Of a stretch of DNA of 12,527 bases, positions 1 through 3,000 are shown in pieces. Under the pieces are notes generated by a model. It was not told where the DNA came from. It did no database searches and saw only the letters and a program-made list of their open reading frames with translations. Position numbers and translations under genes: made by a program. Where the stretch lies: assembly GCA_964615185.1 (NCBI GenBank), contig CAZTOS010000065.1:1-12527 (forward strand), given 5' to 3'. Positions within the stretch are counted from its first letter, which is position 1. Each line of letters opens with the position of its first letter. This stretch comes from an uncultured Thermococci archaeon (GTDB taxonomy: Archaea > Methanobacteriota_B > Thermococci > Thermococcales > Thermococcaceae).

Positions 1-3000
1 ACAACCGGTGCTGCGTGCTTTACTGGAGACACTAGAGTGCTAACCGAAAGGGGTTTCATACCTATTGAAGAACTTGTAAGGTCTGCTCAATCACCAAGGA
101 TAATCTCTCATAAAGGGCCCAAGCAAATCGTAGAGAAATACGATAATGGTGAAATGGAAGTCTTCAGGGTAGTTACACAGGATGGATACGAAGTCAAAGT
201 TACGAAAGAGCATAAGTTCTTGGTCTTTGATAAGGATGGTAATCCTATTCTCAAGCCTCTCATGGAACTCAAAGAGGGAGACTACATTTACGTTCTTACC
301 CCCGAAGATGACTTTGATGCTCCATATTTAAAGCTTAACACAAACGTCGAGCTTAGGAGTAATGGTTACGAAGTAAACTTACCAGAAATCCTCGATGAGA
401 AACTGGCATATCTCCTCGGTATAATATATGCGGATGGGCATATAAGACACTACTGCGAGAATGGAAGAAGGAAAAACTCCAAGATTGAGATATACCTCAA
501 CATTGATGAGGCAAATGTTAAGGAGAAAGTGAAGAGGTATTTCATTGAGCTTTTTGGCTTAGAGCCTAAGGAGTTTGTTCGAGAAAAGCAACACAAAGTA
601 ACACTTATCATACCTTCCACAAAAATTGTAAAGTTCCTCGAACTAAATGGTCTCAGTAAGGACAGGTCCGAGAACATAGCTGTTCCCGAGCTAATCTTTC
701 GTAGCAGGCCAAGTGTCATGGCGGCGTTCTTAGCAGGATTTTTTGATGGGGATGGGACACTTGATCAACATTACAGGATTGCTCTGAAGTCCATTTCAGA
801 ACGTTTCATCAAGGAGGCCCAGCTCCTCTTTATGGCACTTGGAATAATCACAAGCATACAGGAATATAAACCCAAACAAGATAACCACAGAAAAGTATAC
901 ACCCTCAGGATACAGACCAGAGATATGAAAATCAGAGCTTTTGAAAAGCTCGTTGAATCAGTTAAACTTGCAACAATTAGAAGAAGAGCTATAGAAGAAT
1001 TAAAAGAAAATGGTAAAAACAAGAAGTATTCTTTTCCATTCAACGCCATTTACAAAATTAAGAAACCAGAAATTCGGGCCAAAATTCAGAGGGACTATAA
1101 GCTTCTTTCTTATAACTCAAAGGTCACACATAGGGCATTCATAAGAAAAGTACTTGAATTAAAGGATGAGCTCGGTCTTGATGAAGAAGAGGTTAAGTAT
1201 TTCACAATGCTATCAAAGCTCTATCCAGTAAAGATATCTAAAATAGAGCGTCTTGGAGTTCAAAAGGTCTACGATATACAGGTTGAAGGAGTCCACTTAC
1301 TAACAGGCAACGGCATCTACACCTCCAATAGTGGCCCTGTTTCGTTCATGCACCTAATAGATGCCGTTAGCGACGTAATAAAGCAAGGTGGATGTGTAGG
1401 TATTGATTCCTACGTCTATACCGATAAAGGGCTAAAGCAGCTTAGAGAACTTGTTATTAATCCCAAGACGGAGTTCCCAGTTATGGATGCTGTTTATAGT
1501 GACGGGAAGTTTGTTGATGCATATATGGGGCAACTTGGAACTCAAAAAATGTTCAGAATTTGGACTGATCTTGGGAACTATCTCGATGCGACATACAACG
1601 AGCTGGTTCTCACTGCTGATGCTGATGGCTTCAAATGGAAGCGTGCAGAGGAGTTACAAGAGGGGGACATTGTTGTTCTCGTGACTGGGGGATGGAAAGG
1701 GGAAAGGAAGAGACTTCCATCAATAGAGGATCTTAAAATTGGTATTCATCACAACTGCAATGAGGTTACAACTCCCCCCGAGCTTGATGAGAGGCTTGCA
1801 GAGTTCTTGGGTTTCTACGTGGGAGATGGTGTATGGAACAACGGCAGGCTGATACTCTCTATTGGTGATAATGAAAAGGAGCTGGTGGAATACTTCCTCA
1901 AACTTGGTGAAGAGCTCTTTGGACTGAAAGGTCACGTCACTAAGATGGAGAGAAAAGGAAAAGGTAGATACTATCAGATAGTATGGTACTCAAAGCCCTT
2001 AGAAGTGTGGTTTGAGAAGTTGGGCTTCAAGAAAGAGGGCTCCACCAAGGCGAGTATTCCTAAGTTAATACTTCAGTCGGATGAAAAAGTGATAGCGGCG
2101 TTCCTCAGGGGCCTCTTTGAAGCTGATGGTCTTGTCAGGGATGATGGTAGGGTATCACTATCGACAGCATCTCCCGAGCTTGCCAAACAAGTTCAGCTTG
2201 CTCTCTTTGGTTTGGGAATTATAGCAAGAGTCAGGGAGTCCAATTACCCTGGAAGGTACTCCAAGAATCCAATTTATGTCGTTTCGGTTGTGGACAGCTT
2301 AAGCACTGAGATGTTCTACGACAAGATCGGTTTCATAAGGCATAGAGAGAAGCCAAGATTCAAGTATTCAAACAGTAATGTCAGGAAGATACCCTTTGGA
2401 GAAAAACTACTGAAAGATTTGCATGAGAAAATCAAGAAACAGGACAAAAACAGGGCCAAGGACTTCTATAAGAAGCACAGGATTTACTTTGCCAACGGTG
2501 GATCAACAAAGAGGGTAAGTCTCTTTATGCTACGCAGGAACAGCAAGGCTTTCCCTGAACTTGAAAGTCTTGTTAGGGAGTACGAGAGGTATGCATTCGC
2601 AAGGATAACTAAGAAAGAGGTCGTCACCGGAGAGGTGTTCCATCTGGAAGTCCCAGAGACGGAAAGTTATGTTGTCAATGGGATACTCGTCCACAACGTT
2701 AGAAGAGGAGCAAACATGGGTATTTTAGAGGTTTGGCATCCGGACGTTGAGAAGTTCATCCATGCAAAGGAGAAGAACATTGGAACCAATGTCTTGAGCA
2801 ACTTCAACATCAGCGTTGGTCTCTGGGAAGACTTCTGGGAGGCATTGAAAGAAGGTAGAAAATATCCACTAATCAACCCAAGAACCGGAAAGAAAGTTAG
2901 AGAAGTTGATCCCAAGGCACTCTTTGAAGAATTGGCATATATGGCATGGGCAAAAGCTGATCCCGGTGTCGTGTTCTTTGATATAATCAACAAGAGAAAC

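Follow-up and report, generated by a model that had tools for sequence, protein, structure and literature searches.

According to the reviews consulted (including PMC4031507), inteins of all three classes pass through a branched intermediate that forms on a Cys, Ser or Thr at position +1, and only in the bacterial intein-like (BIL) domains is a nucleophile missing at this position. For type A BILs, it has been proposed that a thioester is formed, that the terminal Asn cyclizes and that the freed amine attacks, with cleavage products dominating (PMC4031507). BILs are located in hypervariable regions of non-conserved proteins (PMC7765530). The eukaryotic BIL2 domain of Tetrahymena BUBL1 (PDB 6Y75, 6TMM), which has no nuclease, displays a HINT fold similar to that predicted for the intein described here (Z 17). 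This domain reportedly transfers a ubiquitin-like domain that ends in Gly-Gly to an amine, the acceptor being the side chain of a lysine in a second protein. To our knowledge, BILs lack a homing endonuclease.

The class 1 inteins in loop 2 of class II ribonucleotide reductase (RNR, NrdJ), an enzyme of DNA precursor synthesis, such as P0034 from Thermus, P0003 and P0027, are inserted at QGG↓T/S-RRGA, where the arrow marks the insertion point. They share this insertion point, Cys1, Thr B:7 and the terminal Asn with the intein studied here, as well as the length (mostly 425-475 aa) and the combination of HINT and LAGLIDADG domains, and they are the parent group in our rooted tree. Their +1 residue is Thr or Ser; they carry His or Asn at F:13, Ser or Thr at G:5 and, in 35/35, His at B:10, whereas the allele studied here has Val+1, Glu F:13, Val G:5 and Glu B:10. 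The CroV RIR1 intein, listed in InBase, is also located in RNR loop 2, but two residues upstream (Q↓SGRR) and with a canonical Ser+1 (PMC5784728). Among Thermococcales inteins, Tko CDC21-1 works without His B:10, with Lys58 as the substitute (PMC4031507); in our intein, His F:4 instead accompanies Glu B:10, and there is no +1 nucleophile either.

The ribonucleotide reductase gene and its surroundings

The window, which is the whole stretch of 12,527 nucleotides that was analyzed, is the start of contig C65 of the genome of an uncultured Thermococci archaeon (G000). Its first 4791 nucleotides (1..4791, + strand) consist of a single open frame that is open at the contig start and codes for the precursor of a class II (B12-dependent) ribonucleotide reductase, NrdJ, with three inteins (TIGR02504 NrdJ_Z, PF02867). 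The score of 592.8 bits for TIGR02504 exceeds the cut-off of 399.95, and the catalytic motifs NP-C-GE and ESCNL are in frame, which bears out the original prediction that the frame and the catalytic motifs are intact. The 5' part of nrdJ was recovered at the end of contig C58 (C58:13976-14866 of 14871) and is 82% identical to its counterpart in G007, a Thermococcales genome from another genus. The split gene is the only nrdJ found in G000. A second RNR, a possibility raised in the original prediction, does exist: nrdD is present in both G000 and G007.

Intein 1 (16..1329, + strand) is located 21 residues upstream of the loop-2 intein, has 438 aa with LAGLIDADG motifs and ends in Ser-Asn before a canonical Ser+1 (C...SN↓S); within Thermococcales genomes, its family is the one most similar to the loop-2 inteins. 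Intein 3 (3046..3504, + strand) is a mini-intein of 153 aa (C...RN↓C) with a canonical Cys+1 in the NP-C-GE motif, which we take to be the thiyl Cys. In place of His-Asn, this mini-intein has Arg-Asn at its end (Lys-Asn in G007). Its block B (TGDEKH) is unusual, its identity to the G007 copy is only 68%, and the metagenome run X8 contains an allele without the mini-intein (joint 3045-3505).

The genes at 4917-11661 code for a purine phosphoribosyltransferase-like protein, an RNA 2',3'-cyclic phosphodiesterase, a 429-aa P-loop ATPase-like ORF, an archaeal CCA-adding enzyme, a 599-aa ORF, a 144-aa ORF and a KaiC-like ATPase, with no evident connection with the intein. An IS6-family transposase is located at the contig end (window 11735-12520).

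Anatomy of the loop-2 intein

The second intein (1393..2697, + strand) has 435 aa with HINT and LAGLIDADG domains (Pfam Intein_splicing, LAGLIDADG_3) and belongs to a clade that lacks the +1 nucleophile. Its anatomy agrees with the original prediction in every coordinate: Cys1 is encoded by TGT at 1393..1395, the His-Asn of block G by CAC AAC at 2692..2697 and Val+1, which has no side-chain nucleophile, by GTT at 2698..2700 (all on the + strand). The N-extein ends in K-Q-G-G, with Gly at both -1 and -2 (1381..1392, + strand), and KQGG precedes the junction in 114/116 of the clade members scored. In block B (T-Y-N-E; 1591..1602, + strand), Thr B:7 is kept and Glu70 replaces His at B:10, and in block F (2632..2670, + strand), His (2641-2643) replaces Asp at F:4 and Glu (2662-2664) replaces His at F:13. 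Two LAGLIDADG motifs (1804..2130, + strand) carry the catalytic acids D145 (1825-1827) and D245 (2125-2127).

The insertion point is QGG↓V-RRGA, and thus in loop 2 as originally proposed. Arg+2, the residue after Val+1, aligns with Arg207 of T. maritima NrdJ, a position that we take to be that of the substrate-binding Arg of loop 2. The account of E. coli Arg298 in PMC8772380 fits such a role for Arg+2. The structure predicted for the intein with 12-residue flanks has a pLDDT of 90 and a pTM of 0.91, with low confidence in the flanks; over residues 10-447 it resembles full-length inteins such as TliVMA. The overall fold resembles those of TliVMA, PhoVMA, PI-PkoII and PI-PfuI (PDB 7QSU/7QSS, 7QST, 2CW7, 1DQ3), with TliVMA the closest (Z about 33; for 7QSU, Z 33.5 and rmsd 2.8 over 329 residues). 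The sequence identity to these four inteins, which presumably have canonical splice junctions, is 21-26%.

The element has the features of a homing intein: it is inserted in frame into a conserved motif of the host, it has blocks A, B, F and G, a HINT fold and both LAGLIDADG catalytic acids in the sequence, and relatives have intein-free alleles (11 empty QGGV loci). Cys1 and the terminal Asn are those of class 1, but both this allele and the one in G007 have Val instead of Cys, Ser or Thr at +1, and His B:10, which is near-universal in class 1 without being absolute, is replaced by Glu70. Class 2 inteins of the KlbA type combine Ala1 with Cys+1, as compared to Cys1 and Val+1 here. Class 3 inteins have no N-terminal nucleophile and rely on a WCT motif with Cys at F:4 and on a +1 nucleophile, as compared to Cys1 and His F:4 here. 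An internal Cys of the class 3 type was also rejected for the clade as a whole; F:4 is never Cys in its members, which are therefore not class 3. The first Ser, Thr or Cys of the C-extein is Thr+30. Canonical chemistry of classes 1-3 is impossible here, as the original prediction had argued.

With type A BILs, the intein shares Cys1, the His-Asn end and the missing +1 nucleophile, a combination for which aminolysis has been proposed (PMC4031507). BILs mostly cleave and are found in hypervariable regions of non-conserved proteins without homing endonucleases, whereas this element interrupts a conserved motif in a core enzyme, contains LAGLIDADG motifs and matches Intein_splicing. The latter profile was matched by 26/26 same-site inteins, 16 of them from the clade, and no match to PT-HINT or Hint_2 was obtained at E 0.01 among these 26. 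By architecture and descent, the element is classified as an intein, and by its +1 residue it falls outside classes 1-3. It probably works like a type A BIL, although its location, its nuclease and its profile matches are not those of a BIL.

The Val+1 junction

The absence of a nucleophile at +1 is confirmed and is not an error. Among the 99 genomes of the order, a full-length match to the intein was identified in one other genome, G007, and a profile search of the 133 genomes of the phylum recovered the intein only in G000 and G007. The G007 intein, located on a single contig, is 86% identical and also shows HN↓V, but spelt with different codons (CAC AAT↓GTC AGA). A contig from metagenome run X2, which is flagged as a possible source sample of the window DNA, spans 666-3366 with only two differences (1149, 1832), none of them at the junction; like that from X2, the evidence from runs X3 and X8 consists of contigs, which cross the junction and each contain one unlisted difference. 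No Ser, Thr or Cys codon is found at 2698, where the original prediction had read GTT; the GTC of G007 and the X2 contig support this reading, while X3 and X8 provide no strict confirmation. A sequencing or assembly error is ruled out by the different codons in G007 and by the X2 contig.

The original suggestion that Val is the ordinary host residue in Thermococcales also proved right, as QGGVRRGA was found in 11/11 of the intein-free Thermococcales RNR loci fetched, and run X1 contains an empty allele with GTG AGA AGA directly after 1392. Misplaced boundaries were rejected, given that excision yields exactly the QGGVRRGA of these 11 relatives and that no Ser, Thr or Cys precedes +30. RNA editing or recoding of the +1 residue was rejected because the +1 codons of the clade (AAA/AAG, CGC, ATT/ATA, GTT/GTC) would seem to have no common edit to Ser, Thr or Cys. 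In a motif survey of G000, 14 matches were obtained, corresponding to the loop-2 intein, 12 other intein-like ends and one chance match; all of the 12 other ends precede Ser, Thr or Cys.

A clade of loop-2 inteins without a +1 nucleophile

The missing nucleophile extends far beyond the allele on which the original prediction was made, to a large lineage with mostly Lys at +1. In three protein searches, 153 distinct inteins were identified at QGG↓x-RRGA, with the +1 residues K (90), R (15), I (9), V (3), M (1), T (24) and S (11), in proportions that are biased by the selection on the junction pattern and by a Lys+1 member that served as seed in one search. This is the table of same-site alleles that the original prediction called for. 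A DNA pattern blind to the +1 residue gave at least 120 metagenome matches, some of which are redundant and one of which is a chance match, and among the 119 intein ends listed, 64 precede T, 25 S, 25 K, 3 R and 2 I, so that 30/119 have no nucleophile. Selection by profile score placed 130/353 stored proteins in the clade. The +1 residue is Lys, Arg, Ile, Met or Val in 127/128 scorable members, Cys1 is present in 125/125 members with an N-terminus and His-Asn in 128/128 members with a C-terminus, counts that are partly circular since the profile was built from intact members. Thr B:7 is found in 118/118 members, and no Ser, Thr or Cys occurs from +1 to +7 in the 116/116 members scored.

In a tree of 98 sequences with less than 80% identity, one branch separates the 65 non-nucleophile sequences from the other 33 (SH-aLRT 100). 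In the rooted tree, the clade arises inside the Ser/Thr group with a support of 99, in a quick search with a narrow outgroup of three closely related site-a inteins and with two long-branch sequences omitted. The trees indicate that the inteins with a non-nucleophilic +1 residue are a single clade derived from the class 1 loop-2 inteins, in which the window allele is on a long branch (1.43). The source names of the members include Nanoarchaeota, Ca. Nanopusillus, Micrarchaeota, Woesearchaeota, Heimdallarchaeia, Bathyarchaeia, Ca. Methanoperedens and Thermoplasmata; the Nanoarchaeota member P0006 (BFI73330.1) is located on a contig of 773,326 bases.

In all these searches, members of the clade were found only at the RNR loop-2 site. 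In a search of 401 Thermoplasmatota genomes, no carrier was found among the matches listed, and of the 35 RNR junctions read, only that of the G007 control has the insert. No carrier was identified in 15 genomes of one order, and a GTDB-wide seed scan recovered only two unrelated V-ATPase inteins. Viral contigs gave no match to the protein seed and two pattern matches, both with Ser+1. Five canonical same-site inteins (L088, L101, L129, L184, L185) are shortened to 298-371 aa, and two shortened canonical same-site matches with Ser+1 are located on giant-virus MAG contigs.

No reversion from K, R, I or M to T or S was seen at the clade junction, though Thr is one base change away and occurs at the site in 16/34 intein-free alleles. 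In P0238 (residues about 260-687), the intein is inserted one codon upstream (KQG↓C...HN↓SFRRGA), which places Ser at +1; this is an apparent case of junction sliding and shows that a nucleophile can be regained in the clade.

Active-site signature

In the blind DNA set, His F:13 is present in 0/30 inteins without a nucleophile vs 66/89 canonical ones, while G:5 is Val in 30/30 of the former vs Ser or Thr in 86/89 of the latter. By this comparison, the clade-specific changes are clustered at the C-terminal junction (F:13, G:5). His F:13 is dispensable in some inteins and His B:10 is described as the residue that inteins conserve most (PMC4031507). His B:10 is present in 110/118 members of the wider clade, as are both LAGLIDADG acids (110/118), and F:4 is Asp in 96, Glu in 16 and His in 6. 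The window allele lacks His B:10, Asp F:4 and His F:13, which the original prediction had missed. Glu B:10 and His F:4 occur together in a subclade of six sequences (the window allele, G007, P0004, P0006, P0009 and P0011), all 6 aligned sequences with His F:4 have Glu B:10, and P0225 and P0228, seen separately, show the same pair. These carriers are kin, and the pairing is therefore a sign of one event rather than of independent covariation. In the endonuclease domain of the clade, we also observed the specific residues YMADGC (intein positions 142-147), F221 and H249, which may reflect a changed DNA target at the +1 codon.

Selection and residence in the host

We compared the intein of the window to that of G007, where pN is 0.078 and pS 0.74, the latter near saturation; pN is 0.042 for the first 100 residues, the N-splicing part, and 0.07-0.09 for the exteins. 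In twenty non-independent pairs of metagenome sequences, omega is 0.13-0.19 across the intein. For the C-extein, omega is 0.04-0.16 in the window/G007 and metagenome pairs (0.16 in the latter). GC-biased saturation kept the canonical group out of this comparison. Frames are open upstream of the intein at 19/20 and downstream at 22/22 of the clade loci, similar to the canonical alleles (46/47 and 49/50). The Lys+1 allele L134 has a frameshift near intein residue 100, due to decay or to an assembly error. Also, carriers of the clade retain the NPC motif (106/109) and the N-terminal Cys motif (110/111) of the host RNR. These patterns indicate that the clade is under purifying selection.

On the extein tree (FastTree), clade carriers are interleaved with empty and canonical alleles and need 7 label changes, at least 4 of them forced by strong branches, as compared to 1 on the intein tree, which suggests lateral spread or repeated loss. 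The extein and intein trees largely agree around the window, so that long co-residence and recent transfer are equally likely. The +1 residue tracks the host lineage, with V alleles grouping with empty V alleles and K alleles with empty K alleles. The extein of the window is 98% identical to the intein-free RNR P0321, and the no-nucleophile intein is rare, with carriers in only 2/133 genomes of the phylum.

Discussion

A way of maturing RNR outside textbook splicing probably exists at this site. We lean, by a modest measure, towards splicing in which the terminal Asn cyclizes and the freed alpha-amine then attacks the Gly-Cys1 thioester, a route proposed for type A BILs (PMC4031507). The element would be a mobile, selected lineage that arose from the class 1 loop-2 inteins and for which the +1 side chain became dispensable. 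A thioester would form between Cys1 and the extein Gly-1, with His F:4 probably standing in for the lost His B:10 in the window subclade. The terminal Asn would cyclize, aided by the invariant penultimate His and without a branched intermediate, and free the alpha-amine of Val+1. This amine would attack the unhindered Gly thioester and produce the normal QGG-V-RRGA peptide bond, while the folded RNR would keep both ends of loop 2 together. The element would gain access to RNR alleles (K/R/I/M/V) that are closed to canonical inteins.

The five +1 side chains are unrelated to each other, which argues that the side chain is not the nucleophile, and the invariant Cys1, His-Asn and Thr B:7 imply that the residues for thioester formation and ligation are kept. 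We favor direct aminolysis over cleavage only, the two working outcomes set out in the original prediction, because the required residues are kept, the +1 side chain varies freely, Gly-Gly precedes the junction and the extein ends adjoin. Movements of loop 2 accompany the binding of effector and substrate (PMC8772380), which argues for ligation rather than a nick. Against aminolysis stand the long branch of the window allele and its lack of His B:10, the nrdD in both hosts and the Ser+1 of P0238. Thioester hydrolysis would compete with ligation at hyperthermophilic temperatures, and without His F:13, Asn cyclization would, if anything, be slower.

If the reaction ended with cleavage, thioester hydrolysis and Asn cyclization would free the intein, and the RNR would work as two chains with a nick between Gly-1 and +1. 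We regard this outcome as unlikely, but it requires exactly the conserved residues, so that the conservation of Cys1 and His-Asn suits it as well as it suits aminolysis, and cleavage is the main outcome for BILs. Aeh1 nrdA, which we take to be a naturally split but working phage class I RNR, also counts for it, as does the flexibility of loop 2, which can be disordered (PMC8772380). The nick would separate the loop-2 Gln from the substrate-contacting Arg and should disturb specificity control, and a Gly thioester beside a positioned free amine would tend to ligate. It is improbable that the intein is a selfish element that inactivates nrdJ and cleaves itself to free the endonuclease, in hosts that live on nrdD and with flanks conserved by homing into fresh alleles. 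The nrdD genes of G000 and G007, the rarity in the phylum and the near-identity of the window extein to P0321 are consistent with such a history, while exteins and inteins co-branch over long stretches of both trees (V, K and I/M groups), which argues for long residence, downstream frames are open at all 22 loci with a low omega for the C-extein, and two further inteins are kept in frame. Simple decay into a dead allele rescued by another RNR, the third outcome in the original prediction, is disfavored because the nucleophile is absent as a trait from the whole selected clade and not through a lesion of this allele, even if the presence of nrdD in both hosts fits it.

It is highly improbable that a relay nucleophile from outside the junction, for instance a cysteine in the folded RNR or in a trans-acting factor, takes up the N-extein before its transfer to the freed amine. 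The catalytic cysteines of RNR are near loop 2 and the clade is confined to this site, which favors a relay, but the splicing domain has no invariant Cys, Ser or Thr besides Cys1 and the threonines of blocks A and B, F:4 is Asp, Glu or His, and the first seven C-extein residues offer no substitute. We likewise give very little credence to incomplete processing, by which the intein would stay on one or both ends and the RNR would work with it hanging off loop 2. This loop is mobile and near the surface (PMC8772380), and the changes at B:10 and F:13 could point to slow chemistry; such an arrangement would be hard to explain with a 435-aa insert at the interface of effector and active site and with both reactive ends invariant.

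No description of the no-nucleophile clade was found in the open full-text literature; the SI appendix of PMC10710043 discusses atypical termini and may bear on the novelty of the clade. Judged from sequence data, the loop-2 intein has a fair chance of representing a new mechanistic class. The further reading of a fourth mechanistic class, in the form of a widespread homing lineage that splices efficiently by direct aminolysis and tolerates at least five +1 residues, is one that we find nearly as easy to believe as to doubt. It would include a Val+1 subclade that must function in hyperthermophiles with a reconstructed active site (Glu B:10, His F:4). The window allele has a close relative in the complete Thermococcales genome G007. 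If true, the clade would provide a natural traceless ligase without a Cys, Ser or Thr scar. The +1 requirement is a main limit of intein-based protein ligation, and a natural intein with a tolerance for Lys, Arg, Ile, Met or Val at this position would be useful as a ligation tool. A large, old and selected lineage without a +1 nucleophile implies that splicing can follow a new and efficient route or that an RNR can work with its specificity loop cut, and either outcome would surprise specialists.
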